This document shows, in pieces, positions 2,341 to 25,050 of a stretch of DNA of 25,253 bases (within the stretch, counting starts at the first letter, position 1; every line of letters begins with the position of its first letter). The position numbers were made by a program, and so were the translations under genes. The notes under the pieces are model-generated. The model did not search any database and was not told where the DNA came from. It was given only the letters and a program-made list of their open reading frames with translations. The DNA is from Thermotogota bacterium (lineage in GTDB: Bacteria > Bipolaricaulota > Bipolaricaulia > UBA7950 > UBA9294). The stretch lies in assembly GCA_039679545.1 (NCBI GenBank), contig JBDKUT010000064.1:1-25253 (forward strand), given 5' to 3'.

Positions 2341-3126
2341 CTAGCCTGCACGAGCTTCTTGTGTCGCCAATCCTTGGGTGATGCGCTTCGCCGCGTCGAC
2401 GACGAGCCGGATCAGCCTCTGCCGGTTGTCCTCTTCGGCGCGTAGCTTGGGAACCGAGACCCCGATCGAGCCCACGACACGTCCCGACGGAGAGAAGACG
2501 GGGGCCGCGATGCCGTGGGTGCCCATGATCGTCTCGCCGTGGCTCTCCGCGTAGCCAAGCTTGCGGATCCTGTCGAGCTCCTTCTTCAAGTCCGCGGGCG
2601 ACGTGATCGTCGTGTCGGTGAACCGCGGCAGCCCGACGTCGCCGATGACCGCCTGCCGCTCTTGAGTCCCGAGGTGGGCGAAGATGGCCTTGCCGGTCGC
2701 GCCGGCGTGAAGCGGGTATGTTTCTCCCAACTCGTAGGAGACACGCAGCGCGTGGGTTCCGTCAACCTTCTCCAAACAGACACCCACGTGCTCGCGGAGT
2801 CCGCAGAGCAAGGCCGTCTCCCCCGTCTCGCGCGCGATCCGTTCCATGTGCGGCAACGCGACCTCACGCAACGGCTTGCGTGCCATCGTCGCCGCAAGCT
2901 CAAGGATCCGGCCGCCGAGCCGATAGCCCGAACCGCCGGGGGCCCCTTCGACAAAGTTGTGGGCCTTAAGAGCCGAGATGTAGCGGTACGCGGTGCTGCG
3001 GGGAAGCTGGAGCCGCTCGGCGATCTCCGCGACCTCGAGAACGGGGGTCGCCTCACTGAACAGAGTCAAGATCCGTACACACTTCTCCAGCGTGTTCAGG
3101 GACTCCTCAACCTCCGGCGATCCCAT
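2341..3126 (-). CDS. IclR-family transcriptional regulator
   Basis: N-terminal HTH (VAEIAERLQLPRSTAYRYISAL) and IclR effector-domain motifs (PLHAGATGKA, FTDTTITSP, IRKLGYA, IAAPVF). Confidence 0.93.
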   Translation of the reverse strand: MGSPEVEESLNTLEKCVRILTLFSEATPVLEVAEIAERLQLPRSTAYRYISALKAHNFVEGAPGGSGYRLGGRILELAATMARKPLREVALPHMERIARETGETALLCGLREHVGVCLEKVDGTHALRVSYELGETYPLHAGATGKAIFAHLGTQERQAVIGDVGLPRFTDTTITSPADLKKELDRIRKLGYAESHGETIMGTHGIAAPVFSPSGRVVGSIGVSVPKLRAEEDNRQRLIRLVVDAAKRITQGLATQEARAG

Positions 3127-3148
3127 CTGCTGAGATCGCGAGTCTCAG
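3119..3148. promoter_or_regulatory. Putative IclR operator overlapping the regulator's own start
   Basis: Imperfect palindrome GATCCCA-TCTGC-TGAGATC (3119-3137) and overlapping CTGAGA-N7-TCTCAG (3130-3148); the first matches the motif at 10802-10818. Confidence 0.55.
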
Positions 3149-3157
3149 GATACGAAG

Positions 3158-3185
3158 ATCCTACCGTTGAGCGGACCGATGTCAA
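3158..3185 (-). promoter_or_regulatory. Sigma70-type promoter for iclR-icd-aclB
   Basis: TTGACA (3185-3180) - 16 nt - TAGGAT (3163-3158) on the minus strand. Confidence 0.65.
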
Positions 3186-3332
3186 GGGGGTGTGGCGCTG
3201 CCGAGCGACCTACCCCGCGGAGCATGTGCAAGAACGACGCGTTCGCCTGCCCCCGTCGCGCCAGGTTCTTGGCTGGGGCGTAGCACTATGACGCTCTTCT
3301 GGAGTCCTGCACACCCGGAAGGATCCGAACGC

Positions 3333-6020
3333 CTAGTGAATGCCGTACTTGCGCTTCCGCGCCACAAGAGCAGCTTCACCGCCATCCAGGACACCGAGCA
3401 CTGCATCCCGAATCGGGCTTTCGGAGCAGGCGAGAAACCCGCTGTTCGTGATCGTGCCGATCGAGCCGTTCGACTCGACATGCATGATGAGCTCTGAGTC
3501 AGTTAGCACAACAAGATTGGCGTTGTGTGACGTCAACACGAACTGCTGGTTCACCTTGCGCGCGACGAACTCTGGCGCCACCACGTCCGCAATGTGTCGG
3601 TTGTCCAGGTTGTCTTCGGGCTGGTCGATGACGAGCGGTCCCTCACTGATCATGACAAGGATCGGGAAGATCGCCGTGCAGCGCTGGCCCGCTGAGACGT
3701 TCTGGATAGGGGCGAGATTGCCGTTGGGCAGGACCATCGAGAGCTCCACGTCGTCGTCATCAAGCACGCTCAGAAACTCTACTACTTCAGCCTTCCAGAG
3801 CAGGCTGTCGATTGCCCATCCGGGCGCTTCGGTATCGAAACGGGAGTAGCCGTCAAACAGGTCGCGAAGGCTCACGTAGCTATCGGCGCTGCCGTACCTT
3901 TCGAGGTACCTGAACAGCTCCGTTGCCGTAGCTCCATAGGATCTCGCGTACCTCTCTCGGCCCGTCCTGTCGGCAGATTTCTTCAGTTTGGCATGGGTAC
4001 CCGCATTCCGCGAGTTGATGCGCTGTACCACATCCTCACGGAGGGCCACAATCCTGGCGCGGTCGGTGCAGATCTCCTCGCACGAGGCGCGAATCGTCGA
4101 CGCCAACTGGCGAATCTCCACCGCTATGCTCTCGCACTCGCGTTCGATCTCCGGCAGCGACTTCGTCTCCTCAATGATCTGGATCTGCCTGGTAAGCACA
4201 TCCCTCTCGGCTGCCGGCAACGCATTCACCTTTGGGTCGTACACGTTCGCACGAAACCCCGAGAAGGCCGCCTTCGCCTCAGCAAGAAGAGCGCCGATCC
4301 TCGCAGCGACGCCAGAGAAGCCCTCTGCAAGTCCGTCGCGGGACCGATCACGAAGCACCCGTAGTGCTTCGTGCTCCGCCTTGGCCTCTGCAACCAGAGG
4401 TTGTATCTCTGCCGGGTAGGATTGCGGAGCCGCTAGGTCATCCGTGAATGCTCCAAAGAGCGTGTCGAGACCAGTTTCGACATCCTGTCCCGCCTTGGCG
4501 GCTGCCTTGCTCAGAGCAGTCAGGCGCTGTTCGCAGGCGAGATGCGCTTCGTAGTCCTTCTGCAGCGCTGCGAGCTTCGCTTCCTCCAACTTCTCGAGGG
4601 TCTTCCTCTTCTCGCGTAGAGCGTCCCGCCTCGTTAGACTCTCGTTCAGGTGCTTCAGCTTCCGCTGGAAGACTGGGAGCTGGTCACGAGCTGCCTCAAC
4701 TTCCTCGTCAATGGCTCCATGGAGCCGGTGTACCTCTTCCTCAATCCCGACTCTATCGAGGAGTGAGATCCGAGCCCGCGCGTCATCTGCGATACCCTCG
4801 ATCTCGTGCCAGCCAAGCACCGACGCTCGGAAGCCGGCTTGCTGAGCATCTTCTACCTCCTCCGGTGGAGCTCCGTCACGGTGCACAACCAGGCGGCCCT
4901 GCGAGTCTGCTCGCCTAGTCAGAAGTAGCTTGCTGCCTGAGGCCGACTCCACAAGGCAGGAAACGAACCCGCTCGATCCGAGGACGTGAGACACATGGCT
5001 TGCGATTTCCTTGGCGCGCTTCTCCGGCAGCGCGGTGCCTAGGACAAACCGCAAGCACTCCAGAATCGCCGTCTTGCCCGAGCCTTTGCAGCCAATAAGG
5101 CAATTCATGCTGGGATTCAGCAGTATCCATTCGTCGCGGATGAACTGACCGCAGATGCGGAGACCGACGATGCGTCCAGTAGGAACAGGGGGTTCTTCTA
5201 GTTGTGTCCGCCCTCGGAATGCCAAGGCCTCCTGAACCTCAAGGAAGGTGCAGTACTCGCACTTGACCCACGTGTAGCGGCTCCGGCTGGCTAGGTGCTC
5301 GTGCGAGTGCGCATCGCTTGAGCGGACGCAGGTTGCGTGGGGAATGGTCAGCCCAGCTGACGTACGCTGGTTCCCCCTGAAGAACCCCGCGGTGCGTTCG
5401 TCGAGCACCTCCAGCGCGCTGAAGATGCCTTCACTGACCCACTGCAGGAACGCAGGGTCATCGTAGATATCATCGATGCTGCGCGACTTCGACGGCTGCC
5501 TAGACTGGTGGAGGTGTGCCGGGATGAAGAGAGCTCCCTCGTCGCGGAAGAACCTCGCGACATCGTCCACACTGGAGGTGTACCCCACGACGCCCGTCTG
5601 ACTCGTTCGGCTCGCCAGTTCCTGATGAGCCTTCTCCAGGATGAAGCTGTAGTCCTGGCGCTGGTTCGGATCGATGATGACGAGGCAGTGGTAGAACTGG
5701 TCCTTCGCAATCTTCTTGTCCACCGCATCAACGAACAGGTTGATCTCTGCGCCAGGAAGGAGAGTGACACCCGGAGATAGCCGCTGCAGTCTCTCGAGCG
5801 TCTCCCTAGGCGTCACGCGGCCATGCTCGACTATGGCGGCGATTGAGTACCCGCCAGTGGCCAGTGCGCTCCCCAGTTTCTCGAATGCGTCCGGCGCCCT
5901 ATACTCGTATCCTGGGTCAGTTGGTGAATGAACGTGCAGATCTAGCTTCCGAAACACACCCCCCAGCGGCCTGGAGTGCCGGACGAGTTCCGCCTCAAAC
6001 TCCGCAACATGGTTCGTCAT
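3333..6020 (-). CDS. PHP phosphoesterase fused to coiled-coil SMC/ABC-type ATPase (Ppl/TrlF-like, probable anti-phage protein)
   Basis: PHP motifs DLHVHS, GAEI, YHCL, PAHL, SSDAHS; Walker A GCKGSGKT; long coiled coil; signature VSAGQR; Walker B/D-loop LVIDQPEDNLDN; H-switch TSHNAN. Codon usage looks less GC3-biased than the flanks. Confidence 0.85.
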   Translation of the reverse strand: MTNHVAEFEAELVRHSRPLGGVFRKLDLHVHSPTDPGYEYRAPDAFEKLGSALATGGYSIAAIVEHGRVTPRETLERLQRLSPGVTLLPGAEINLFVDAVDKKIAKDQFYHCLVIIDPNQRQDYSFILEKAHQELASRTSQTGVVGYTSSVDDVARFFRDEGALFIPAHLHQSRQPSKSRSIDDIYDDPAFLQWVSEGIFSALEVLDERTAGFFRGNQRTSAGLTIPHATCVRSSDAHSHEHLASRSRYTWVKCEYCTFLEVQEALAFRGRTQLEEPPVPTGRIVGLRICGQFIRDEWILLNPSMNCLIGCKGSGKTAILECLRFVLGTALPEKRAKEIASHVSHVLGSSGFVSCLVESASGSKLLLTRRADSQGRLVVHRDGAPPEEVEDAQQAGFRASVLGWHEIEGIADDARARISLLDRVGIEEEVHRLHGAIDEEVEAARDQLPVFQRKLKHLNESLTRRDALREKRKTLEKLEEAKLAALQKDYEAHLACEQRLTALSKAAAKAGQDVETGLDTLFGAFTDDLAAPQSYPAEIQPLVAEAKAEHEALRVLRDRSRDGLAEGFSGVAARIGALLAEAKAAFSGFRANVYDPKVNALPAAERDVLTRQIQIIEETKSLPEIERECESIAVEIRQLASTIRASCEEICTDRARIVALREDVVQRINSRNAGTHAKLKKSADRTGRERYARSYGATATELFRYLERYGSADSYVSLRDLFDGYSRFDTEAPGWAIDSLLWKAEVVEFLSVLDDDDVELSMVLPNGNLAPIQNVSAGQRCTAIFPILVMISEGPLVIDQPEDNLDNRHIADVVAPEFVARKVNQQFVLTSHNANLVVLTDSELIMHVESNGSIGTITNSGFLACSESPIRDAVLGVLDGGEAALVARKRKYGIH

Positions 6021-6034
6021 TTCGCCACGTGCGA

Positions 6035-6064
6035 AGTCTATCGCGATCCCTAGCAGCAGCGCAA
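6035..6064 (-). promoter_or_regulatory. Possible promoter for the PHP-ATPase gene
   Basis: TTGCGC - 18 nt - TAGACT, ending 14 nt upstream of ATG 6020. Confidence 0.35.
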
Positions 6065-6341
6065 TGCTACGCTCTCCTCAGAGAAGTGCACTGCTTGGCC
6101 ATGGCGGGTCGTCGCGGCCCAGTCACCTGTCCAGCGCGCTGCGACTGGTCCGCATTCTGCCTCAGAGTCGCCCGGCGCGAGGGCGGGTTCAGCCCTTCAG
6201 TGGCCCGCCCGCTCGCAGTCCGCGCCTCTTCCTGACGCGTGCGACAGCACTCTCGTCTGCATCTTGATTGCTGCGCCGGAGAGGTTGTATCAATGCCGGA
6301 TGACATGGCATCTCTGGTGTCGTTCCGGACACGCCCGCCGC

Positions 6342-6398
6342 GTGTGCGGCAATAACCCTCCCGCGTTGAGCCTCGCGCCGTCTCTCTGAAGGATCGTG
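6342..6398 (-). pseudogene. Degenerate, frameshifted relic of an aconitase 3' end (att-like repeat)
   Basis: 6342-6365 matches 8852-8875 at 20/24 nt (12-nt exact core). Translation HDPSERRRE-(frameshift)-LNAGGLLPHT parallels the aconitase C-terminus QDLSEREKAMLRAGGLLAYT. Confidence 0.65.
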
Positions 6399-6479
6399 CG
6401 GTGTGGCCCATTCCCTCCAGCGCTGGCACCCCGGGCTCGCAGCGCGTCTCAAAGCAGCACGAGGTACGATCCGCGAAGG

Positions 6480-8228
6480 TCAGTAACAGCAGTAGCCCTT
6501 GTTGTGGCACACCACGCCTTGCGATACAAACCTGTGCGATGGGAAGTCCACAGTCAGGTCAAAGACTTCGAACGCGCCGTGCTCGACGACTATGCGTCGG
6601 ACAACCTTCAGGCTTCCGTCCTCCGCACGAAGCCTCGTCCCTTCCGCGACCTGACCGGCAAGTACAACACCGTTCGACCCAAACAGCGGCTGGCTAGGAG
6701 TAAACCGTGCCGTGTCATCGAGCTTCACGAGCGCACTTGCACGTCTCACCGTGATCGCCCCGATCCGCCCGGGGCTCGGCCGCCAATCTGCGGTACTGCA
6801 CGTGACCTCGTCCCCTTCTGGCACTTCCTCGCCGCGTCGCACACCCCCTGGCACCGGGACCTCCCCCCCCAGCGGTATGCAACCCCCACCTCCCGAGGAG
6901 CGTGACTTGGGCGGAGTACGAGGCAAGGAGTCGCGCAAGCCTGGCGGAAGCAGACTCAGCAGCAGCTGGCGCTCCTCTCCCAACACTAGGCGAAGGTCTC
7001 CATCTTTACCCATCGCATGCACCACGTTCTCCGGCACCAGGCCGGTTGCCGCCCAGTCACCGCCGAGGCCCTGCGTGACACGAATACCGAACTCGCGGGC
7101 TGACGCGCGAAGCAGTTGTCTCCTCCGACTCGGGTCCGCGGTCTCCTCCGCCATGAGGCTGTAGACACACGCGGCGTTGAGATGGAGCCGATCCCGCACA
7201 TCCGGCGGCAAGTCCCGCTCCATGGACGCAAGGCACAGCAACTGGCTTTCGGCTTCAGCGAATGCATCTTTGCTGAGCGCGTGAACGACGGCAGCCATGG
7301 TAGCTCGCGACGGCTGATGGAGCAGCATTGGAAAGACCTCCAGCACTCGCTGAGCTGACACCGCGCCCTGGAAGCCAGCAGTGGTGGCGGCGCCGACGGG
7401 TTCACCTTGGAAACGCACGTGAAGCAGCAGCTTGCGGAAACGCATGGGCTGCGGCAGGTACTTGTTGCAGATGCTCACGACATTGCTGAGGTACTCCATC
7501 CGTCTGGCCAATTCGCCAACCATCGACTTCTGAATGCCACGTACCGAGACGAGGCGGAGTGGGTCTTCCCGATGTAGCACCAGGTTCACGTCAATCTCAT
7601 GTGTGATCCCGTCCGCTGCTATGCCCCGTGTCCGGCTCCGGGCGATCCAGGGCCAGTCGCCAGCCGCGGAGTCCCCGATCCTGATTCGCAGCACACGATC
7701 CGCTCTTCGGCAGTCCTCATCGAGCTCATCTGCAAGGACCACAAGCGCGGCGACCTTCGCCAGGTCTATTTCGTGGCTGCCTGTTCTCTCCATGTTGGCC
7801 AGCTCGCTGAGTCGCTCATCCAGTCTGTCGCCGCACCCGTGGCACCGAACCACAAGGTTCACGTACTCCTTGTCTTCCTCGCCTAGCACGTAGGAGTTCG
7901 TCTCGGCCTGCACGATCTCCCCCGAAACCCGCGGATGGTCCACCGCGCCTCTGAGACGCCCAACGTCGTGATACAGCACGGCGGCAAGCGCCAAGAAGAG
8001 CTCATGCCCGCGAATCCCGTCCTTCCCGATCGGCGTACCCGCAAGGCAACCGTCCAGTTTCTCCAGGACCCTCGTGATGTGCTCTGGGCCGTGCCCCTCT
8101 CCACCAACCGCGGCGTACTCGACGCTGAGCAGCCTGTGCTTCAAGACCTGATAGCAGGAGAAGTACGTGGTATCTGCACGACGTGAGAACTTGCTTAGCT
8201 TGGACTCTATCGCTAGTGCGTCGCACAT
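6480..8228 (-). CDS. HD-domain phosphohydrolase (HD-CE-like) + TPR-like region + C-terminal Hint/intein-like domain
   Basis: Start moved to ATG 8228 (RBS AAGGAGG). HD motifs HGPEHITRV, AAVLYHDVG, DHPRVS, VRCHG, LVVLADELD; TPR-end motifs LNAACVYSL and KDGDLRLV; GGGG|CIPLGGEV ... VFDLTV...HRFVSQGVVCHN|KGYCCY. Confidence 0.8.
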   Translation of the reverse strand: MCDALAIESKLSKFSRRADTTYFSCYQVLKHRLLSVEYAAVGGEGHGPEHITRVLEKLDGCLAGTPIGKDGIRGHELFLALAAVLYHDVGRLRGAVDHPRVSGEIVQAETNSYVLGEEDKEYVNLVVRCHGCGDRLDERLSELANMERTGSHEIDLAKVAALVVLADELDEDCRRADRVLRIRIGDSAAGDWPWIARSRTRGIAADGITHEIDVNLVLHREDPLRLVSVRGIQKSMVGELARRMEYLSNVVSICNKYLPQPMRFRKLLLHVRFQGEPVGAATTAGFQGAVSAQRVLEVFPMLLHQPSRATMAAVVHALSKDAFAEAESQLLCLASMERDLPPDVRDRLHLNAACVYSLMAEETADPSRRRQLLRASAREFGIRVTQGLGGDWAATGLVPENVVHAMGKDGDLRLVLGEERQLLLSLLPPGLRDSLPRTPPKSRSSGGGGCIPLGGEVPVPGGVRRGEEVPEGDEVTCSTADWRPSPGRIGAITVRRASALVKLDDTARFTPSQPLFGSNGVVLAGQVAEGTRLRAEDGSLKVVRRIVVEHGAFEVFDLTVDFPSHRFVSQGVVCHNKGYCCY

Positions 8229-8268
8229 GCGAACTCCTCCTTGTCGGCGATGCTCCACCCGCGAGGTC

Positions 8269-8277
8269 AGCATAGCA
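8269..8277 (-). promoter_or_regulatory. Possible extended -10 promoter for the HD-Hint gene
   Basis: TGcTATGCT about 40 nt upstream of ATG 8228. Confidence 0.35.
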
Positions 8278-8545
8278 TGGAGGCTATCTCCCCGTACTTC
8301 AAGAGCGGAAAGCCTCCACTAACGGCGCTTGTGCGGTCCTGGTTGGGCAGCGCGGACGCGTAGATTCCAGCTGAACCTCCGAGCCTTGATCTCACCAGAC
8401 TTCGAGGCTGCCTGACACATGCGGTTTCGCTCGTCTGGCAAGGGCATCATGCCACTAGCACCAATGTCCGGCGAGCAGCAGAATCCTAGCTCGTCTGTTG
8501 CACGGCAGGGCCATGGGGTCAGATCTTCGCTCTTTTCCTGCCGCG

Positions 8546-8588
8546 CAACGCCCGACCGCGCGGCAGCTGCAGCCGCCGCCAGGCGTTG
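8546..8588. repeat. Imperfect 43-bp inverted repeat
   Basis: CAACGCCCG-accgc-GCGGCAGC-tgca-GCCGCCGC-CAGGCGTTG forms a long bulged hairpin in the island's non-coding arm. Confidence 0.5.
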
Positions 8589-8832
8589 ACCTACGCGGCC
8601 TCCACCGGCGACGTGCCCAGAACGTGATGTGCTGCAGTCACAGGTTCCGCCAAAGAGAGAGCGGACGCCCAGCCCTCCAAGGCCTGCGCCCGCTCCCCAA
8701 GGCTCCGGATGAGTCTACTCTCTACCGGATTGGCATCCCTAACCCGTTCGCGACTCCGCGCGAGCTTTCTCGCACAGGGTCCGGATCAAGGACGGAGGCC
8801 AATCCGCCGTCCCGATGTCCGGCGCCTAACGC

Positions 8833-10725
8833 CTACGCGTTATGAGTGGCAGTATACGCCAACAACCCTCCCGCGCGAAGCATCGCTTTCTCCCGCTCGG
8901 ACAGGTCTTGCTTCGCGGGGATCGTTGTCTTCTTGGTGAGGTTCTTCACGACGAGGTCCGGCTCGAGCTTGGACACATCGATCTCGAGCTGGTCTCCCTG
9001 GTCGATCAGGTCGGTGTTGCAGGTGATCGGCAGGATCCCCATGTTGATCAAGTTCGCGCGGTGGATGCGCGCGAAGCTCTTGGCAAGAACGGCCTTGATG
9101 CCGAGCTTCCACGGCGCGAGGGCCGCGTGCTCGCGCGACGAGCCCTGTCCGTAGTTGTCGCCGCCGACGATGAATCCGCCGGCCTTCTCCACGGCGCGCG
9201 CGGCGAACGTCTTGTCCTCGTAGTGGAACGTGAACTTCGCGATTTCGGGCAGGTTCGACCGCAGGTGCTGCGTGAGCGGTCCGGCCGGAAGGATCGCGTC
9301 GGTCGAAATCCCGTCGCCGACCTTGAGCAGCGCTTCGCCCTTGAGCACGGACGGCAGCGACTTCTGGTTCCCGAGCGGCGCGATGTTGGGCGCGCGGCGG
9401 ATCTCCACCTTCGGACCCTGCGGCTCGAGGATCAAGTAGTCGTCGACGGTGAGCTTCTCGACCTTGATCTTCGGCGCGGGCAGCTCGCGCGGGTCGGCGA
9501 TCGCACCCTTGAGGGCGGAGGCGGCGGCAACTTGCGGGCCGCACAGGGCCAGCTTGCCGTCCTCGTTCCCGCCGCGTCCTTTCCAGTTGCGGTTTACGGT
9601 GCGCAGCGAGAGGTGGTTTGTGCCCGGGACGAAGCCGATGCCGATGCACGCGTTGCAGCCGGGTTCGATCATCCGCACGCCGGCCTTCGTCAGCTCGAGG
9701 AAGCTGCCGTCTTCCATCAGCATCTCCCACGCCTGGCGCGATCCGGGCGACACGATGACGTCGATCGCCGTCGACACCTTCTTGCCCTTCAGCATCTCAG
9801 CGACGATCTTGATGTCCTGGTACGAGCCGTTGGTGCACGAGCCGATGAACACCTGGTCGATCTTCGTCCCGGCGACCTTCTCGATGTCGAAGACGTTGTC
9901 GGGCATTCCGGGCATCGCGACGAGCGGCTTCACCGTCGCGAGGTCGATGTCGATCTGCTTGTCGTAGACGGCGCCCTCGTCGGGCGAGAGCTCGCGCCAA
10001 TCCTTCTCGCGGCCCTGCATCTTGAGGAACTTCTTCGTCACGTCGTCGGACGGGAAGATGGACGACGTCGCGCCGGACTCGGTGCCCATGTTCGTGATGG
10101 TCGCCCGCTCCGGGACCGTCAGGTCCTTCAGGCCCGGCCCGACGAACTCGAGGAAGTAGCCGACGCCGCCCTTGACCGTGATCCGCCGCAGCACCTCGAG
10201 CGCGACGTCCTTCGCGCCGACGTTCGGCGATAGCTTCCCAGCCAGAACGATCTTCATCATCTTCGGGACCGTCAGGTAGAACGGCCCGCCGCCCATGCAG
10301 ACGGCGACGTCCATCCCGCCGGCGCCGATCGCCAGCATGCCGAGGCCGCCGCCCGTGGGGGTGTGGGAGTCCGACCCAATGAGCGTCTTTCCCGGAACAC
10401 CGAACCGCTCGTAGTGGATCTGGTGGCAGACGCCGTTCCCGTTCTTCGAGAACTTGGCGCCGTAGTGCGAGGCGATGGTCTGCAGGAAGATGTGGTCGTC
10501 GGTCGACTCGCCCTTGAACCCGAGCGAGGTGTGGTCGGAGTACGACACGGCGAGCTCGGCACGAACCTTGTCGATCCCGAGCGCCTCGAACTCGAGCCAG
10601 GCCATCGTCCCCGTGGAGTCCTGAGTGAGGCACTGATCCATGCGAATGCCGATCTCGGTCCCGCGCTTCAATTCACCTTCGCGCAAGTGCTGCGCGAGGA
10701 TCTTCTCGGTCATGGTTTGCGGCAC
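8833..10725 (-). CDS. Aconitate hydratase (short, Aquifex-like putative aconitase type)
   Basis: Likely start GTG 10725 (RBS GAGGTG), giving (M)PQTMTEKIL; motifs LTQDSTGTMA, GVCHQIH, GSDSHTPT, GSCTN, PGCNACIG (three cluster Cys), ISTDAILP, NYGQGSSREHAA, SFARIHRANL. Confidence 0.9.
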   Translation of the reverse strand: MPQTMTEKILAQHLREGELKRGTEIGIRMDQCLTQDSTGTMAWLEFEALGIDKVRAELAVSYSDHTSLGFKGESTDDHIFLQTIASHYGAKFSKNGNGVCHQIHYERFGVPGKTLIGSDSHTPTGGGLGMLAIGAGGMDVAVCMGGGPFYLTVPKMMKIVLAGKLSPNVGAKDVALEVLRRITVKGGVGYFLEFVGPGLKDLTVPERATITNMGTESGATSSIFPSDDVTKKFLKMQGREKDWRELSPDEGAVYDKQIDIDLATVKPLVAMPGMPDNVFDIEKVAGTKIDQVFIGSCTNGSYQDIKIVAEMLKGKKVSTAIDVIVSPGSRQAWEMLMEDGSFLELTKAGVRMIEPGCNACIGIGFVPGTNHLSLRTVNRNWKGRGGNEDGKLALCGPQVAAASALKGAIADPRELPAPKIKVEKLTVDDYLILEPQGPKVEIRRAPNIAPLGNQKSLPSVLKGEALLKVGDGISTDAILPAGPLTQHLRSNLPEIAKFTFHYEDKTFAARAVEKAGGFIVGGDNYGQGSSREHAALAPWKLGIKAVLAKSFARIHRANLINMGILPITCNTDLIDQGDQLEIDVSKLEPDLVVKNLTKKTTIPAKQDLSEREKAMLRAGGLLAYTATHNA

Positions 10726-11307: not shown

Positions 11308-11492
11308 TGTGCGCCTCCTCGCGCTCTAGGGTACGCAGACAGGCGTAGCCGCGGCAAGCAAGTACCGCGTTGGCCGACGCAGCGCTCCTTCCATGAGGAA
11401 CGCGCGACGACCGGCGGCCGCGTGATCGGCTTCGCCGCGGCGTCGGAGGTGCCGCCGCGCCGCGGGCTGCCAGAGATTGCGAGGGCCTTCAT
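11298..11492 (-). pseudogene. Remnant of a flavodoxin-like/NADPH-dependent FMN reductase gene (N-terminus only)
   Basis: ATG overlaps the hpnE stop (ATGA; RBS GAGAGGG). MKALAISGSPRRGG is the classic FMN-binding N-terminus, but similarity is lost after about 20 aa. Confidence 0.6.
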
Positions 11493-12850
11493 TCCCTCTC
11501 GCGCACGCCGCGTGCCGAATCCTCGGTCTCTCCAGGAAGAGCCCACGGTTCGGTCTCCAACTCCGCGCGAGCCGCCGCGCTGATTCCCGACCGGACCGCG
11601 CCTTCGATCGTCGAAGGCCACCCTGTAGCAGTCCAGTCGCCGGCGAGGAAGAGACCGTCGATCGGAGTGCGCGCTGCGGGCCGCAGCGCGTCGGATCCCG
11701 GCGCTGGAACGAACGTCGCCTCGCGGTGCCGGATGACGAGCGAGCGTCGAATCTCCGCATCCCGCACTACGGGAAGGACCTCCCGCAGTGCGGTCGTGAG
11801 GTTGTCGACGACTTCGGCGTCGGCGCGGTCGACCCAGGCGTCGGCCGCGCTCTGCGACAAGACCAAGTGCGTCGATCCGCACTTTTCGTGCAGCTTGCCG
11901 ACGTCGAACACGGCCTGAACGGGCGAGTCGACGGCGATGGCGAACTCGTCGGCGAGTGCCGGGCGATCGAGCCAGAGGTGAACGTTGACGATCGGCGCCC
12001 ACTCGAGACGTCCCGCGGCTTCAAGCACATGCGTGAGCTCAGGGCGACCGCCGGCAAGTCGCTCCAGCGCGTCGGGCGGAACAGCGCTGACCACGGCTTC
12101 GGCGTCGATCGAGCATCCATCGTCGAGTTCGACTCCAACCGCGCGACCTCTGTCAAACAGGACGCGGGAGACGCCAGCGCCGACCTCGGCCAGCCCGCCC
12201 CGCGCTTCGACGTACTTGCGAGCGGCGTCAAAGATCGAGCCGAGGGGCGACGTGAAGAGACCGATGCTCGCGCCGTCGGGCTGGAAGAACCCATCGCGGA
12301 ACACCTTGCGCGCCGCGGCGACGCTGACTCTGTCTGCTGGTGCGTTGAGCGCAGCGATCGAGACGGGGTTCCACAGTCGCCGCACCGTTCGTTCGTTCTG
12401 GCCGTGGCGGGCGAGCCAGGCGCCGAACGTTGCGTCGCCTCGTCGGCCGACCGAAAGGGCCGCGCCGGCACGCAACGCCGCAAGCCGCTCGCCGAACGAA
12501 AGCGGGCGGTAGCGAAGGAGGCTCGGCAGAAGGTGCAAGATTCCGGGTAACGGCGCGGACCGGATCACGGTGCGTTCGCCCTCGCACAGGATGGGAATCG
12601 AGAGGTAGTCCTGGAACGAGACGGTCGGCTCGGCTCCGATTCGCTCAAGGAACCCGGTCGCCGCCGTGCAGCAGCTCATGAGGATGTGCTGGCCGTAGTC
12701 CAGGGTCTCGCCCTCGTGCTCGAACGACGCGCAGCGCCCGCCGAGGCGCGGCGCGCGCTCGAACAGAGCGACATCGACGCCGTCGCCGGCGAGGCGGCAC
12801 GCAGCGGCAAAGCCGGCGAACCCGCCGCCGACCACAACCACACGAGCCAC
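11489..12850 (-). CDS. hpnE: Hydroxysqualene dehydroxylase (squalene-associated FAD-dependent enzyme)
   Basis: VVVVGGGFAG...ERAPRLGGRCASF...DYGQHILM; C-terminal LAGDWTATGWPSTIEGAVRSG; downstream of hpnC/hpnD. Confidence 0.9.
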   Translation of the reverse strand: MARVVVVGGGFAGFAAACRLAGDGVDVALFERAPRLGGRCASFEHEGETLDYGQHILMSCCTAATGFLERIGAEPTVSFQDYLSIPILCEGERTVIRSAPLPGILHLLPSLLRYRPLSFGERLAALRAGAALSVGRRGDATFGAWLARHGQNERTVRRLWNPVSIAALNAPADRVSVAAARKVFRDGFFQPDGASIGLFTSPLGSIFDAARKYVEARGGLAEVGAGVSRVLFDRGRAVGVELDDGCSIDAEAVVSAVPPDALERLAGGRPELTHVLEAAGRLEWAPIVNVHLWLDRPALADEFAIAVDSPVQAVFDVGKLHEKCGSTHLVLSQSAADAWVDRADAEVVDNLTTALREVLPVVRDAEIRRSLVIRHREATFVPAPGSDALRPAARTPIDGLFLAGDWTATGWPSTIEGAVRSGISAAARAELETEPWALPGETEDSARGVRERE

Positions 12851-12851
12851 G

Positions 12852-13856
12852 TCAGAACCTCCTCACGAAGGTCGAGGCAACGAGGACGAGCTTCTCACGC
12901 GTCGAGAGGGAGACGCGGTCAGCGAAGACGTTGAGGCCCAAAGCCTCGATCCGGTCGAGGATTCGGCCGTAGATCTCGGCGAGGAGCCAAAGACACGGTC
13001 TTCCGGCACGGGACACAAGCGGCACAAGGCCAAGCCCGTCATCGAGGAGCGAGCGCGAGCGCTCGGCGTGGGCGCGCAGTAGCTCTCGCAGTGCCGGGGT
13101 CATCGTCCGCGCGCGGAAGGCCGTCTCATCGACGTTATGGCGAACGAACGCCTCGCGGGGAAGGTAGATCCGGCCGCGGCCGAGGTCCTCGTCCACGTCG
13201 CGGAGCACGTTCACGAACTGCATGCCGAGCCCAAGGGAAATCGCCTTCTCCCGCATCGCGTCGGTCGGCGGCACGCCGTCCGTCAGGATCGGCAGCGTCG
13301 CGAGACCGACGGCGGAGGCGACACGGTAGGCGTAGGCTTCGAGCTCGGCGTCCGTCTCCATCCACTCGAGTTCGAGGTCCATCTCCACGCCGTCGAGGAT
13401 CTGGACGACATCATCGGGATCGATGCCGTAGCGAGCGATCGCGTCGGCGAGCGCGACGTCGCGGTTCGTCTCCGGCCGGCCCTCGGCCGCCGCGGCAAGC
13501 CGTCCCCGCAGCGCCGCGATTCCTTCGCGCCTCGAATCGCTGGAACCAACCTGGTCATGGAGAAGCGTGGACTCATCACGCTTCTCCTTAAGTGAACCCG
13601 AAGGGTTCGCGACACGGTCCGAGAGAACCGCGATGGCAGAGCGGTTCTCAGTAAGCGAACGCCGCACGTCGGATGGGGCGGCATTCGCGGCGCTGTCCGC
13701 GACATCATCCAGTTCTCTGCAGAACGCGTAGAGCGCATAGACAGCCAGCCGCTGTCTTCGCGGCAGCGAGAGGAAGGCGAAGTAGAAGTTTCGTGCCTCT
13801 CTTCGCGTGATCTCCGCGCACTCGACGTACGCCGACTTCAGATCCATCGTTTCCAC
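12852..13856 (-). CDS. hpnD: Presqualene diphosphate synthase, with an internal in-frame insertion (alternative start ATG 13847)
   Basis: NFYFAFLSLP, YAFCRELDDVAD, YRVASAVG, QFVNVLRDVDEDLGRGRIYLP. Confidence 0.88.
   Translation of the reverse strand: METMDLKSAYVECAEITRREARNFYFAFLSLPRRQRLAVYALYAFCRELDDVADSAANAAPSDVRRSLTENRSAIAVLSDRVANPSGSLKEKRDESTLLHDQVGSSDSRREGIAALRGRLAAAAEGRPETNRDVALADAIARYGIDPDDVVQILDGVEMDLELEWMETDAELEAYAYRVASAVGLATLPILTDGVPPTDAMREKAISLGLGMQFVNVLRDVDEDLGRGRIYLPREAFVRHNVDETAFRARTMTPALRELLRAHAERSRSLLDDGLGLVPLVSRAGRPCLWLLAEIYGRILDRIEALGLNVFADRVSLSTREKLVLVASTFVRRF
13559..13688 (-). repeat. Four tandem hairpins inserted in frame within hpnD
   Basis: Stems: GGAGAAGCGTG/CACGCTTCTCC (13559-13587), GAACCC/GGGTTC (13594-13608), GAGAACCGC/GCGGTTCTC (13623-13649), GCGAACGCCGC/GCGGCATTCGC (13655-13688). 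Confidence 0.75.
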
Positions 13857-14872
13857 CGCCGTCCGGCAAGCGTGGAGAGGAGAATCCCCACTTTCTCCAT
13901 CTTACTCACGGTCGGCCGCTGGGAGAGCGTGTCGTAGTTCTGGCGCTCGATCTTGTCGAGGATCGCCAGGCCGCCGCGCGAGAAGAGGGCGAGGTCGACG
14001 CGCAGGTGGCCCGAGACTCGATCGAGGAGCGGCAGACCGCGAGCGAAGTAGCCGCGAGCCCGCTCGACCTGAAACCGAAGCAGCCGTCGGACCGATTCCG
14101 ACGCCGTCGCCGTTGCGAGGTCCTCGTCGCGGACGCCGTACTCGGCCATCTCGTCCTGCGGCAGGTAGACGCGGCCCATCTCGTAGTCCCGCTTTACGTC
14201 CTGCCAGAAGTTGGCGAGCTGGAGGCCGATGCACGTCGCGTCGGAGAGAGCGTTTTCTTCTTCGCCGCCGCGTTCGTAGAGGCCGAGGACGAGCCGCCCG
14301 ACGGGGGTCGCCGAGTGCTCGCAGTAGTGGAGAAGGTCGGCGAACGTCGCGTGGCGCTTGTCTCGCTGGTCCATGCGGTTCGCTTCGATGAGGCGGGCGA
14401 ACGGCTCACGGGGAAGGTCGAACCGTTCGATCGTCGGCCGCAACGCCACGAAGATCGGATGCCGCGGGGCGCCGGCGTACGTAAAGTCAAGCTCGGCTTC
14501 GAACTCGTCGAGGAGCGCAATACGGTCCGGTACAGTGCCGTCCGAGGCGCGACGCCCGTCAAGCGCCCAGCCTTCGTCGCCGAGGTTGTCGACTGTACGG
14601 CAATAGGCATAGACAACGGTGAGGTGCTCGCGCATCGCTTTCGGAGCAAGCCACGACACCACAGTGAAGTTCTCGCCCTCCGCTCGGGTGAGAGCGAGGC
14701 ACAGATCTCGCGCCTCCTCGAACGTCGCCACCCGCGCTGCCGGATCCGCGAGCGTGCGACCGACGTCAAGCTCCTGGGCCCGCGCTGCGTAAGGCCTCTC
14801 CCGCCCATCAGATGTTCCTGCGCGGGCGCGAGCCGCGCCAGGTCCCCTGTCCTGTGCGCGGGAACTCACCAT
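13838..14872 (-). CDS. hpnC: Hydroxysqualene synthase (squalene synthase HpnC); start uncertain
   Basis: ENFTVVSWL, YAYCRTVDNLGDEG, YCEHSATPVGRLVL, LQLANFWQDVKRD, GRVYLP; start placed at the ATG/GTG overlapping the upstream stop. Confidence 0.88.
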   Translation of the reverse strand: MVSSRAQDRGPGAARARAGTSDGRERPYAARAQELDVGRTLADPAARVATFEEARDLCLALTRAEGENFTVVSWLAPKAMREHLTVVYAYCRTVDNLGDEGWALDGRRASDGTVPDRIALLDEFEAELDFTYAGAPRHPIFVALRPTIERFDLPREPFARLIEANRMDQRDKRHATFADLLHYCEHSATPVGRLVLGLYERGGEEENALSDATCIGLQLANFWQDVKRDYEMGRVYLPQDEMAEYGVRDEDLATATASESVRRLLRFQVERARGYFARGLPLLDRVSGHLRVDLALFSRGGLAILDKIERQNYDTLSQRPTVSKMEKVGILLSTLAGRRWKRWI

Positions 14873-15357
14873 CCCTGGACCTGGATCACGACTTCGCGCT
14901 CGCGCGGTCGGTCGAGCTCGACGAGGAACACGCTCTGCCAACGCCCAAGGGCAAGCCGCCCACCCATCACCGGGATCGTCTCGCTCGCGCTGAGTAGGAG
15001 GTGCTGGCAGTGCGAGTGTCCGTTCGGACACTCGTCGTCGGTCATGTTCGCCGTGCGGATGACAAAGTCGTTGTGGCGGTACTCCGCCTCCCGCGGCGCG
15101 CTCGTCTCCAGGAATCGAGCCATGTCCCGAAGCAGGAGCGGCTCGTTCTCGTTGATCTTGATCGCCGCCGTCGTGTGGCGCGAGAACACAGTCACCGTCC
15201 CGTCCTGGATCCCTGACGCCTCCACCGCTGCGGCGACCTCGTCCGTGATGTCGATGAATTCGGGCGCCGTCTGCGCGATCCGTTGGATCGCGACACGGTG
15301 CATCTTCATCGCCACGCCGTCTTCGATCGTCGTGCGCATTCCTTCACTCCTCTTCAC
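14866..15357 (-). CDS. yjbQ: YjbQ/UPF0047-family protein
   Basis: FIDITDEV, FSRHTTAAIKINENEP, YRHN, NGHSH, LGRWQSVFLVELDRPREREV; GTGA overlap with ispH (alternative start 15339). Confidence 0.88.
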   Translation of the reverse strand: MKRSEGMRTTIEDGVAMKMHRVAIQRIAQTAPEFIDITDEVAAAVEASGIQDGTVTVFSRHTTAAIKINENEPLLLRDMARFLETSAPREAEYRHNDFVIRTANMTDDECPNGHSHCQHLLLSASETIPVMGGRLALGRWQSVFLVELDRPREREVVIQVQGW

Positions 15358-16223
15358 TTCGCTTCCTCCGAACTTCCCTCGGCGCGGCCGCGCAGCCGCC
15401 GGACGACATCCTCGATGACGTCATCCGGCGTCGACGCTCCCGCCGTCACACCGAACCGCTTCCCAGCCGTCAGCCACTCGTCATCGATCTCGCCCGCGGA
15501 CTCGATGTGGTGTGTCGGCACCCCCGTCGCTCGGCACGTCTCCGCGAGCTTCCGCGTGTTCGCCGAGCTGCGGCTTCCCACGACGAGGAGCGCGTCCACG
15601 TCCGCCGCGAGCTCCGCGGCCGCCTGGTACCGCCGCCCGGTTTCCGGGCATGTCGTGTCGACGATGCGCATCTCGGGCACTCGCCCGGTGTAGCGCTTCA
15701 CCAGTTCCTGAACGAACTCGGCGAACATCGCCGGGCTCTTCGTCGTCTGCGAGATCACCGCGATCCCTTTTTCGCCGATCGGGACGTCGACGTCGGGCGA
15801 CTGCGTGGCGATCCCGCGCCCCCGCGTCCACGAGAGGATTCCGCGCACCTCGGGGTGCTCGGCCTCGCCGTACAGGACGACGCTGTACCCTTCCTCAACC
15901 AGATGCGCCGCCGCCTGCTGCGCTCGGCGGACGATGGGGCACGTCGTGTCGACGAGCCGCAGGTCGCGACGTTCGATCTCGGCGTACACTTCTTCCCCGG
16001 CGCCGTGCGCGGTGATGGCGACCGTTCCGCCCTCCGGAACCTCGTCAAGGCTCCGCGCCATCCGCGCGCCCTTGGCGGCCAGTGCGTCGACGACGTGCGC
16101 GTTGTGCACGATGGCACCGAGGGTGTGGAGCGGGCCGTGCTCGGCAAGCTCGGTCTCGATCCGCTGGACCGCCCGGCGCACGCCGCCGCAGAACCCGAGG
16201 ACCTTCGCCTTGGCGATCGTCAT
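15354..16223 (-). CDS. ispH: 4-hydroxy-3-methylbut-2-enyl diphosphate reductase
   Basis: GFCGGVRRA, IVHN, AHG, DTTCPIV, HPEV, SQTT, DTTCPET, SANTRKL, GVTAGASTP. Confidence 0.95.
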   Translation of the reverse strand: MTIAKAKVLGFCGGVRRAVQRIETELAEHGPLHTLGAIVHNAHVVDALAAKGARMARSLDEVPEGGTVAITAHGAGEEVYAEIERRDLRLVDTTCPIVRRAQQAAAHLVEEGYSVVLYGEAEHPEVRGILSWTRGRGIATQSPDVDVPIGEKGIAVISQTTKSPAMFAEFVQELVKRYTGRVPEMRIVDTTCPETGRRYQAAAELAADVDALLVVGSRSSANTRKLAETCRATGVPTHHIESAGEIDDEWLTAGKRFGVTAGASTPDDVIEDVVRRLRGRAEGSSEEAK

Positions 16224-18262
16224 GCCACACCGTCCTTGGCGACCCGGCCAGCTTGCGCTTCCGCAGCTTCGGCGGGTCTTCCAGCGACGGGCGGAACGCC
16301 TTCCGTCGCCCGTTGCTCGCCGCCCGTTTGGCGGCGCCAGCGCCCCAACGCCATGAGCGGGAAGACGTCGCGGTACAGGTGGTAGCGGATCATGAAGTCG
16401 GTCGGGAACCCGGTCCCCGTGAACGCCTCTTCGTCCCAGCCGCCCTGCGCGTTCTGCGTCTCGACGAGGTAGCGGATTCCCCGCTCAGTGGCCGTGCTGC
16501 GGAGCTCACCTGCGGCGAGCAGACCCAGAAGTGCCCACCCCGTCTGCGACGCCGTGGAGGGACCGCGGCCCCTCCACGCGGGGTCGTAGTACCCCTCGAT
16601 CTTCTCCCCCCATCCGCCGTCGGGATTCTGGTGCGCGAGGAGCCAGTCAACGGCCCGGCGCACGTGCGGCGCCGCCATGTCCTCGCCCACCGCAGCAAGT
16701 CCCGGGAGGACCGCGCCTGTTCCGTAGACGAGGTTCACGCCCCAGCGGCCGTACCACGCGCCGTCCTCTTCTTGCTCGCGGCGCAGGTACTCAAGCGCGC
16801 GACGCACGGTCCGGTCATCCTTCCGCCGACCGATCCGTCCGAGGAACTCGAGGATGTGGCCGGTCACGTCGACCGACGGCGGGTCGATCATCTCCCCGAA
16901 GTCGGCGAACGGGATGTCGCGCGTCCAGGTCTGGGTGTTGTTGCGATCGAACGCGCCCCAGCCACCGCCCCGACTCTGCATTCCGACGAGCCACCGGGTC
17001 CCATGCTCCATCGCGTCCGCCTTGCGCGCCGTGTCGAGATCCATCTTGGTGAGCGCAAGGAGAACGATCGAGCTGTCGTCGGTGTCGGGGTAGACGTCGT
17101 TCTGGAACTCGAACGACCAACCGCCCGGCGCCGCGCTGCAGCGAACAAGCCAGTCGCCGCCGCTCGCGATCTGCTCGTCCATGAGCCAGCTTCCGGCCTT
17201 CACGAGCGCCGGGTGATCGCCCGGCACGCCGGCATCCTCAAGAGCCATCGCCGCGAGCCCGGTGTCCCACACCGGGGACAAGCACGACTGGAGATGAAAT
17301 CGCTCTCCATCGTCGATCGAGAATCCCTGTGGCCCGTAGAACCCGGCGAACCCCTTCGCGAGCGGGCCGTTCCCGTCAAGCCGGTCGCCGAGGAGTTGTA
17401 GGGCGATGAGCGAGTAGACCCACGGCGGCTGGATGCCGCCCCACGCGCCGTCCGCCTCCTGCCGCTCGAGGATCCACCGCTTCGCCTTGCGGATCGCCGT
17501 CTCGCGCAGCGGCTTGTACGGGAGCCTCCCGTAGGCGCGAGAGACCCGGTCGGCGAGGAGGAAGAAGCGGGCGCGTCGCGTGTGCTTCGTCGTCGGGACG
17601 CGGAGGTCGGCGTTCGCGCGCCCGTTCACGAAGAGTTCGTCGATCCTCGCTTCGGAGGGGAGCGGGACGACGGGCTTTCGGTCCATGACGATCGCGAGGG
17701 CGGCGACCGTTTGCCGCGCCCAGCAACCGAACGAGTAGAGGCTGATTGGGAACCACGACGGCAAGAGGACAATCTCGGGCGGAAGCGCGGGGAGACCGCG
17801 CCAATCCCACTCGCCCATCATCGCGAGCCAGATCTTCGTGAAGACGCGGGCCTTCTCGACGCCGCCCTTCGACAGGATGTACGCCCGCGCCCGCGCCATC
17901 TCGGGCCGACCGACCGGGATCCCCGCCATCTTCAGGGCGACGTACGCCTCCGTTGTCGTCGACAGCTCGGCCGGACCGTCGAACCAGTTGGCCCACGTCC
18001 CGTCGGCCCGCTGCTTGGCGAGGATGTACGCGGCCGCACGCGATCGCTCGGCCGCATCGGTGTTCCCGAGGATGTGGCGGAGAAAGACGTGCTCGGCGGT
18101 GATCGTCACGTTCGACTCGAGTTCGGCCCACCAGTAGCCGGCGTTGTACTGGATCTCAAACAGGTGGGCGACGGCGTGGTCGATGGCGCGGCCGACGGCG
18201 CGATCCAGATCGAGCGCGGGAGCGGAGGTCGGGTCCTTCGGGATTCGTGTCGCGCTAGCCAC
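16220..18262 (-). CDS. shc: Squalene-hopene cyclase
   Basis: Start GTG 18262 (RBS AAGGAGG); GYWWAELE, RVFTKIWLA, GGIQPPW, SPVWDT, catalytic YPDTDD, several QW repeats, FTGTGFP. Confidence 0.96.
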   Translation of the reverse strand: MASATRIPKDPTSAPALDLDRAVGRAIDHAVAHLFEIQYNAGYWWAELESNVTITAEHVFLRHILGNTDAAERSRAAAYILAKQRADGTWANWFDGPAELSTTTEAYVALKMAGIPVGRPEMARARAYILSKGGVEKARVFTKIWLAMMGEWDWRGLPALPPEIVLLPSWFPISLYSFGCWARQTVAALAIVMDRKPVVPLPSEARIDELFVNGRANADLRVPTTKHTRRARFFLLADRVSRAYGRLPYKPLRETAIRKAKRWILERQEADGAWGGIQPPWVYSLIALQLLGDRLDGNGPLAKGFAGFYGPQGFSIDDGERFHLQSCLSPVWDTGLAAMALEDAGVPGDHPALVKAGSWLMDEQIASGGDWLVRCSAAPGGWSFEFQNDVYPDTDDSSIVLLALTKMDLDTARKADAMEHGTRWLVGMQSRGGGWGAFDRNNTQTWTRDIPFADFGEMIDPPSVDVTGHILEFLGRIGRRKDDRTVRRALEYLRREQEEDGAWYGRWGVNLVYGTGAVLPGLAAVGEDMAAPHVRRAVDWLLAHQNPDGGWGEKIEGYYDPAWRGRGPSTASQTGWALLGLLAAGELRSTATERGIRYLVETQNAQGGWDEEAFTGTGFPTDFMIRYHLYRDVFPLMALGRWRRQTGGEQRATEGVPPVAGRPAEAAEAQAGRVAKDGVA

Positions 18263-19319
18263 GGGTCCTCCTTTGCTCAACGAATGCGCGCACGGCCGCG
18301 ACGACTTCGCCCACAAGCCGATCCTCCGGAACCGCGGTCGCCGTCGGCTCACCACTCACGTACACGGTCCCCTGGCCGCGGCTTCCGACGATCCCGACGT
18401 CGGCGTCCTTCACTTCGCCGAGCCCGTTCACGGCGCACCCCATCAACGCCACCTTCACCGGCTCGACAACGTCGCTCAGTGACCGGCGGACCTCGTCGGC
18501 GATCCGCGCGAGGTCGATGCCGGTGCGACCGCACGTCGGGCAAACGTGGAGGTCGACGCCGCGTTGCCTGAGGCCGAGCGAGCGCAGGATCTCGTAGGCG
18601 GCACCGACCTCGGCGGTGGGGTCGCCGGCAAGGGAAACCCGAATCGTGTCGCCGATCCCTTCGGCAAGGAGAATGCCGAGTCCGACGGCGGAGCGGATGG
18701 CCCCCTCCCACGCCGTCCCCGCCTCAGTGATCCCGATGTGGAGTGGGTAGTCGATCTCCGTGGCGACGGCGCGGTACGCGTCGACGGTCATGCGCACGTC
18801 GGTCGCCTTGAGCGACACGACAATGTCCTTGACGTCGTGCCGCTCGAGGAGCCGGATCTCGTTGAGGGCACTCTCGACCATGCCGGGGGCCGTCGCGCGT
18901 CCGTGTGCGTCGAGGTACTCCTTCGCCAGCGACCCCGAGTTCGCCCCGACGCGGATGGGGATGCCGGCCTTCTGCGCCGCCTCCGCGACCTCGCCGATTC
19001 GCGCGGGGTCGGTGATGTTGCCCGGGTTGAGGCGCAGTTTGTCGACGCCGGCCTCGATCGAGGCAAGGGCAAGCCGATAGTCGAAGTGGATGTCAGCCAC
19101 GAGGGGGATCGAGATCGACCGCTTGATCTCAGGGAGCGCCTCGGCAGCGGCGAAGTCGGGGACGGCGACGCGGACGATCTCGCAACCGACGGTCTCGAGG
19201 CGCCGGATCTGGGCGATCGTCGCCGCCGCGTCGGCGGTGTTCGTGTTCGTCATCGACTGGACGACGATCGGGACCCCTCCGCCGATCGGAACGCCGCCCA
19301 CGCTCACGCGCTTCGTCAT
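18255..19319 (-). CDS. ispG: (E)-4-hydroxy-3-methylbut-2-enyl-diphosphate synthase
   Basis: Start ATG 19319 (ATGA overlap); VQSMTNT, PLVADIHFDY, RLNPGNI, HIGITEAG, GDTIRVSL, CPTCGR, MGCAVNGLGE. Confidence 0.96.
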   Translation of the reverse strand: MTKRVSVGGVPIGGGVPIVVQSMTNTNTADAAATIAQIRRLETVGCEIVRVAVPDFAAAEALPEIKRSISIPLVADIHFDYRLALASIEAGVDKLRLNPGNITDPARIGEVAEAAQKAGIPIRVGANSGSLAKEYLDAHGRATAPGMVESALNEIRLLERHDVKDIVVSLKATDVRMTVDAYRAVATEIDYPLHIGITEAGTAWEGAIRSAVGLGILLAEGIGDTIRVSLAGDPTAEVGAAYEILRSLGLRQRGVDLHVCPTCGRTGIDLARIADEVRRSLSDVVEPVKVALMGCAVNGLGEVKDADVGIVGSRGQGTVYVSGEPTATAVPEDRLVGEVVAAVRAFVEQRRTRG

Positions 19320-21929: not shown

Positions 21930-21930
21930 C

Positions 21931-24845: not shown

Positions 24846-25050
24846 TCCACGTCGCCAGGGTGACGGCGGAGTCCCGCTCTGTAGCCAGGTGGCGAGAATA
24901 CAGGCGCGGCTTGGTCTGGCTACCTTACCAGGGGATCGGCGCAACCTCGCAGGGATCTACGTCGCGAGGATAGCGGCGGAACCTAGCGCGGCTACGTGGC
25001 CAGGGTAGCGGCGCAATCTCGCAGCAATCTACGTCGCGAGATAGCGGTCG
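24846..25050. repeat. Degenerate tandem repeat: six ~24-nt cores at 35-38 nt period
   Basis: Cores start at 24846, 24884, 24919, 24956, 24991 and 25028; consensus about KCTACGTSGCSAGGRTAGCGGCGS. Confidence 0.75.

Follow-up and report, generated by a model that had tools for sequence, protein, structure and literature searches.

Many defence hotspots lack an integrase, and the question they pose is how genes can be gained without old ones being lost. Among the closest described systems, the C-terminal displacement of Rhs genes (Jackson et al. 2009, PMC2935791) replaces the 3' part of a gene with incoming DNA and pushes the old part downstream, leaving arrays of variable-length fragments from the same clade; homologous recombination was proposed, and the sections of that paper drawn on here invoke no integrase. 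Insertion with long target duplication (Furuta, Abe and Kobayashi 2010, PMC2853133) places defence genes between long duplications of variable length, without mobile-element genes and, in the cases considered from that source, mostly in competent species. Type VI secretion system (T6SS) effector–immunity arrays of Vibrio cholerae are attributed to homology-facilitated illegitimate recombination (Kirchberger et al. 2017, PMC5361080): homology anchors one side, addition is polar, old modules move downstream, and the relevant part of that account shows no integrase. Cognate integrases and one fixed site serve prophage e14, which leaves a 163-bp icd' copy at E. coli icd (PMC6379469), and the tandem accretion of cis-mobilizable and integrative mobilizable elements (CIME and IME; PMC5704250). 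Here we set beside these systems the 3' end of an aconitate hydratase gene (acn) from a Thermotogota bacterium (Bipolaricaulota in GTDB; GCA_039679545.1, contig JBDKUT010000064.1), analysed as a window of 25,253 nt that is one whole contig (G000:C64); coordinates are window positions throughout. The locus is a real hotspot with a known kind of scar plus an unexplained variant of it. We favour, at a probability of roughly 0.6, homology-anchored displacement of the gene's tail without a dedicated integrase, whereby the stretch at 6341–6398 would be a former aconitase ending pushed downstream by a relative's DNA carrying both an aconitase ending of its own and an HD-Hint gene.

The minus strand reads acn, an HD-CE/Hint gene, a PHP-ATPase gene, iclR and icd, acn being the first gene of the usual acn–iclR–icd cluster, and GC content falls from ~0.65 to 0.58–0.64 over both inserted genes. 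The features on which the argument turns are these:

8833..10716, minus strand: aconitate hydratase (acn), the live gene; NCBIfam PRK07229, 807 bits against a cut-off of 612; contiguous with iclR in most relatives
8833..8910, minus strand: live aconitase tail (QDLSER...GGLLAYT...stop), the portion copied downstream, from sequence comparison
6480..8273, minus strand: protein with HD-CE and Hint domains, database product of 582 aa; Pfam HD-CE E 5e-16, PT-HINT weak
6341..6398, minus strand: degenerate, frameshifted copy of the aconitase tail, from alignment and profile
3333..6020, minus strand: protein with a PHP domain and an SMC-type ATPase, TrlF/Ppl-like; NCBIfam TrlF 270 of 350 bits, Ppl 107 of 1000; PADLOC Ppl E 3e-25

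The HD-CE/Hint gene is the cargo between live and displaced tail, which together bracket a block of 2.5 kb.

The initial annotation of this DNA had proposed that the 3' end of aconitase is an integration hotspot, and relatives bear out that insertions gather there, with variable cargo and with displaced ends marking the insertions. Our sample comprises 130 Bipolaricaulota loci (L040–L169 and L171; aconitases from L170 onwards, which are more distant, were excluded) and the window; collapsing identical ends leaves 115 distinct loci, 96 distant and 19 close (at least 89% identity, window included). The distant loci that reach iclR (73 of 96) mostly have a short acn–iclR gap, at most 400 bp in 62 and at most 1 kb in 5; it is wider in 6, two of which (L100 and L133) have a seemingly altered gene order. 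Content varies in the close clade: 10 of its 19 loci reach iclR, over a gap of at most 400 bp in 3 and of more than 1 kb in 7, while a further 7 run beyond 1 kb without reaching iclR and 2 are short. The intervals carry an NYN gene (PADLOC HEC-09), an XhoI-type restriction–modification pair, AbiEi/AbiEii, a Dsr1-like protein, PDC-M32A, NACHT proteins, a kinase, a GNAT and a radical-SAM gene, with blocks common to several loci in shifting combinations. These data support the view that the region behind aconitase in these uncultured bacteria is a strain-variable hotspot of mostly anti-phage genes. Empty, one-unit, multi-unit and cargo-bearing states form a family-wide series whose order can be read, and the acn 3' region could be mined for uncharacterised defence genes. 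Two aconitase loci whose inserts differ (L124 and L125) fall in a single genome bin, probably from mixed strains.

Displaced aconitase tails, picked by eye among loci that include non-independent kin (L070 and L077 are near-identical), occur in 9 of the 18 other close loci and in ~14 of the 96 distant ones. The long copies sit directly behind the first cargo block and measure 170 nt at 91% identity (L042/L043), 175 nt at 83% (L050) and 219 nt at 89–91% (L044/L097), the last including DNA past the stop. Measured against their own live genes, three of them carry 6, 10 and 40 mismatches at first, second and third codon positions and differ in 37 codons synonymously against 12 non-synonymously, an excess which indicates that the long copies are former working alleles rather than neutrally decayed duplicates. 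The origin of one can be traced: the L050 copy agrees with the live L048 end at 38 of its last 40 nt, and the 681 nt that follow are 91% identical to the DNA behind the L048 stop. By this comparison L050 is an L048-type locus in front of which a new tail and an NYN gene were placed.

Each described system shares part of this pattern. As in Rhs arrays, end copies of variable length and from the same clade are stacked with the newest beside the gene; Rhs, as far as described in the source, swaps a variable in-frame toxin tip, whereas acn is a housekeeping enzyme with a near-constant tail whose gain lies behind the stop. There is no counterpart of the toxin tip and immunity gene, the acn tails being 6–10 conserved codons. 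Three loci (L043, L050 and L044) have the repeat of more than 30 bp, the insert below 20 kb and the lack of a mobility gene that characterize long target duplication. The restriction and modification genes expected inside such repeats are not there: the bracketed cargo is NYN, AbiE or HD-Hint, and the XhoI-type pair lies distal to the copies. Repeats in that system are near-identical (43–47 of 46–47 in the table rows examined), whereas the repeats at acn are coding-tail alleles that have diverged, pile up repeatedly behind a single gene and include hairpin units without a gene. Polar, one-sided addition recalls the T6SS arrays, where by the part of the account used here the old effector is lost, unlike at acn, where a copy of the anchor gene's end is retained. 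Like e14 at icd and CIME/IME accretion, the locus has a housekeeping 3' end that is restored, a diverged end of similar length left downstream, and repeated events that stack; the cognate integrase and single fixed site of those systems were not found at acn.

That last difference bears on the initial annotation, which had taken the aconitase end for an attB used by integrase-driven elements; we find this not supported. Copies begin at four or five positions relative to the stop (~-19, -27, -75, -163 and -185), and since these differ there is no fixed crossover site; the start is near-fixed only within the short units. In the intervals of 15 relatives, 7 of them cut by contig ends, Pfam searches covering 35 and 89 reading frames detected neither a tyrosine nor a serine recombinase (the second set took 89 of 103 frames, the other 14 overlapping frames of the first), and three tyrosine-recombinase domains from the genome itself, used as tblastn queries, matched no interval. 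Integrases beside aconitase 3' ends, which the annotation had suggested looking for, were seen in none of the 15; the mobility genes found there are one Y1 transposase, inside an XhoI gene, and one IS110. Its remark that the window itself holds no integrase is correct: the genome's recombinase matches (4 tyrosine, 1 serine) all lie on other contigs. A phage donor was rejected, as searches of viral contigs gave no match to the unit or to the acn end. The scar also occurs elsewhere. Strong downstream tail copies follow 6 of the 1,978 open reading frame tails in the genome and none of the reverse-strand controls. Of these six, one is a complete paralogue; the rest span 59–197 nt at 80–96% identity, on contigs without a recombinase match. 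The other displaced tails of this genome (G000; loci L230–L233) lie behind these stops:

C7, stop at 14637, plus strand
C45, stop at 22022, minus strand
C9, stop at 28559, minus strand
C58, stop at 2511, plus strand
C59, stop at 4527, plus strand

A second, older tail copy lies 2.8 kb further along C45, and the block between the tails there holds what we take to be a HigB/HigA toxin–antitoxin pair; C58 may be a paralogue array. The tail scar is not specific to aconitase, and at least four other genes of the genome carry similar copies. A literature search at listing level, without subscription papers or supplements, turned up nothing on this locus, on aconitase as a target of integration or on twin-hairpin tail units that lack a gene.

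Those units are the short copies: ~100 bp without a gene, comprising a spacer, hairpin 1, hairpin 2 and the last 6–10 aconitase codons with the stop. In L063 there are four, and their in-frame tails all differ. Ahead of the same distal DNA, L051 has none, L047 one and L050 two, and L046 repeats the L050 array with one extra unit beside the gene; the stacks appear to grow at their gene-proximal end, newer pieces lying beside the gene. A strict pattern retrieves 6 tails in 3 loci against none on the reverse strand, over 49 kb. Both hairpins covary, with compensatory changes at 9 of 19 pairs; 94.6% of cells are paired, a share that drops to 46% or less when the pairing is slid, the structure being derived from the same alignment. 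In 74 genomes of the family, acn accounts for 8 of 11 model matches and for 4 of 5 pattern matches, and whole genomes give strong unit matches at acn alone; the window's own genome has no such units. We rejected a dispersed REP/REPIN family, because the matches are tied to acn and the loose patterns in the window genome look like chance. The Y1 transposase was likewise rejected as mover, the unit model having found nothing convincing beside 8 Y1 loci (best E 0.05). The paired core boxes of attC were not seen by eye in the units; no attC model was run. In five distant loci (L063, L066, L061, L106 and L132) the last six aconitase codons themselves form a hairpin ending at the stop. Neighbouring units are near-identical in L123 and L063, and with the junction at a hairpin foot this is what one would expect if tail copies arose by replication slippage over hairpins within the genome and then decayed. 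Yet the copies keep their codon structure and match the live ends of other strains rather than their own gene, and captured genes are left unaccounted for; the synonymous bias largely refutes slippage as the sole route, and we hold it to be very improbable, although it may have seeded new junctions.

Tail displacement could proceed as follows. Incoming DNA from a relative, probably acquired by transformation, would pair with the conserved acn as its anchor. In a first event the far end of the donor would join the recipient's tail through short microhomology; in later events the join would run through a displaced tail already present on the donor DNA. Both crossovers would then fall inside one core gene, which would leave that gene intact, retain older cargo and make the layout self-propagating: the recipient would gain a new tail with new cargo and lose nothing of what lay behind the old one. 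The PHP-ATPase would thus have reached the window before the HD-Hint block, and the twin-hairpin units would reflect the same event with no gene captured. ComEC and DprA are present in all five genomes checked. If the rule holds, the displaced tail is a reusable second homology arm, with one core gene supplying both crossovers.

The remaining features of the locus are:

8541..8832, minus strand: structured non-coding stretch 3' of the acn stop, from folding and comparison with a genome of the same genus (G001)
8515..8528, minus strand: lone end motif of a Y1 (IS200-like) transposase, from a motif match
3158..3185, minus strand: predicted sigma-70-like promoter ahead of iclR and right edge of the island, similarity to G001 resuming at 3166
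2341..3126, minus strand: IclR-family regulator, the downstream flank (Pfam IclR_C, HTH_IclR)

Some 190 nt after the acn stop fold into several hairpins, and 8650–8860 folds strongly across and after the stop, the stop-codon hairpin showing a compensatory change in G001. Window and G001 have ~290 nt behind the stop in common (84%); beyond, the G001 cargo differs. In two loci (L044 and L041) the last hairpin holds a twin-hairpin module in its loop, a module that the window lacks there. An Rfam scan of 2900–9100 gave one chance match and none for the structured stretch; a tRNA or tmRNA as integration target was rejected, none being present. The Y1 end motif stands where similarity to G001 stops, at the left edge of the cargo. 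It flanks all 8 Y1 loci fetched, its 11-nt core has 4 copies genome-wide, and the lone copy at 8515–8528 is a probable transposon scar. In G001, a radical-SAM/SPASM gene followed by a short Cys-rich frame (L031:450–2045) forms a possible peptide-maturation pair, and tandem repeats of ~39 nt lie just upstream of the iclR promoter (L039:11590–12030).

The window's own copy is short (58 nt) and decayed. The 24-mers at 6365–6342 and 8875–8852 on the minus strand agree at 20 positions and differ at 4, as initially annotated, and a repeat search groups them as one family (35 nt at 77%). The peptide similarity noted upstream also holds: the copy translates as HDPSER (6398–6381) and then LNAGGLLPHT (6370–6341), and it is frameshifted, because the two blocks are 10 nt apart in the copy and 12 in the live gene. 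Over 48 nt, 33 are identical to the live tail, with 4, 2 and 9 mismatches by codon position; the best match is the tail of L122 (34 of 48). The last codons of the live gene had been described as unlike its body, and GC content at third codon positions is indeed lower there, at 0.58 compared with 0.92 for the body; this is weak evidence, because the tails of six insert-free relatives checked drop as well, less strongly (0.64–0.82 against 0.81–0.95). The annotation had both modules arriving in tandem at aconitase. The HD-Hint block is the only one flanked by tails on both sides; the PHP-ATPase, which is distal and probably older cargo, is unbracketed, with no tail copy at the iclR end of the island. 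No joint between the two tails, as expected from excision or an empty site, was seen in contigs from two sequencing runs of one study, one of them possibly the source, at ~7x depth, contigs being prone to drop rare forms. On balance 6341–6398 is very probably a genuine displaced aconitase tail.

Several observations weigh against tail displacement or against the window as an instance of it. Shuffled island sequence equals the pairwise score in 5 or 1 of 500 trials (two scoring schemes), and genome-wide blastn gives the copy an E of 0.67. A profile from the tails of 17 relatives scores the copy at 10.8 bits (2 of 500 shuffles equal it; genome-wide E 0.69) and one unrelated match higher, at 10.9 bits; among 399 decoy tails taken from other genes, 15 do equally well against the island and 3 against its non-coding part. 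The copy is not followed by any recognisable stop or hairpin unit, and no relative shows the PHP-ATPase directly behind acn, none of 183 other genomes having a close homologue. Taken alone, the window copy is of modest significance and suggestive only. The copy might thus be a chance match at a real hotspot, the two genes having entered between acn and iclR through ordinary replacement or with the aid of a Y1 transposon, whose end motif lies at the cargo's left edge; besides the genome-wide E of ~0.7, 31 reverse-strand controls reach a comparable score (30) against 50 real tails of 1,978. We judge this quite unlikely: the copy lies on the correct strand, derives from the correct part of the gene, shows a third-position bias and immediately follows the first cargo gene, as do the copies in L043, L050 and L044, and half of the other close loci carry such copies. 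G001 has other cargo ~290 nt behind the stop and no tail copy within the 4.4 kb available, so exchange here does not always run through tails. Competence is not proved by ComEC and DprA, which are widespread (over the cut-off in 10 of 14 controls), and an imperfect homology of 19–28 nt is short for RecA.

The same side of the balance includes the unit junction, which is near-fixed at the foot of hairpin 2 (~-27 in distant genera, ~-19 in the close clade), the tail joining within a few bases of it across genera. This is the weak point of tail displacement and leaves room for a dedicated mechanism, although an inherited junction can also account for the near-fixed position. A trans-encoded integrase, or an enzyme acting on folded single-stranded DNA, might target the Ala-Tyr-Thr codons, the units being donor sites or decayed cis-mobilizable elements, which is the annotation's idea with the enzyme moved elsewhere in the genome; such site-specific accretion would fit the junction, the covariation of both hairpins, the confinement of strong unit matches to acn and the integron-like polar growth. 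It does not fit the long copies, which start elsewhere (-163 and -185), or the tail copies borne by unrelated genes; the intervals and searched viral contigs lack the expected recombinase and units, respectively, the Y1 loci gave the unit model nothing convincing, and the hairpins could be plain conserved mRNA 3'-end structures. We regard it as possible but unlikely. A related idea is an integron-like array growing off the aconitase end with no integrase at the site: the twin hairpin would direct an enzyme, or steer transformation-coupled recombination, to the Ala-Tyr-Thr codons, and ~100-bp empty cassettes and defence cassettes would stack, each giving a fresh C-terminus. This too seems unlikely, a shade more so; no integron integrase was found beside the insertion site, and at listing level we found no paper on hairpin-directed junctions in transformation. 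Were the hairpin junction enzyme-directed, it would represent a new site-specific system.

Neither cargo protein has a close homologue in the 183 other genomes of the phylum, where one weak partial HD match was seen. The HD-CE/Hint protein has 22 other relatives, 21 of them near full-length, at ~30% identity, with a conserved architecture of HD-CE, a helical region, a Gly-rich linker and a Hint domain that ends a few residues past (His-)Asn. The N-terminal Cys and C-terminal Asn of self-cleaving Hint domains are in place, Gly-Cys and Asn being invariant in 22 of 22 aligned proteins. From these residues, putative self-cleavage would leave the HD part with several terminal glycines or a thioester, and such a cleaved part could be conjugated to a target. 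No paper on HD-CE–Hint fusions was found among titles and abstract starts, with subscription papers outside coverage. The PHP-ATPase scores below the curated cut-offs of both the Ppl and TrlF families, which makes it Ppl-like and outside the Ppl family proper, and it is a putative anti-phage protein. Elsewhere in the window, 11489–21992 presumably holds an isoprenoid/hopanoid-type cluster (squalene synthase-like pair, squalene-hopene cyclase-like, IspH-/IspG-like, radical SAM and polyprenyl synthase, as recognised from the translations), and short imperfect direct repeats of 29–72 nt lie at 24849–25032, upstream of a DUF3467 gene.

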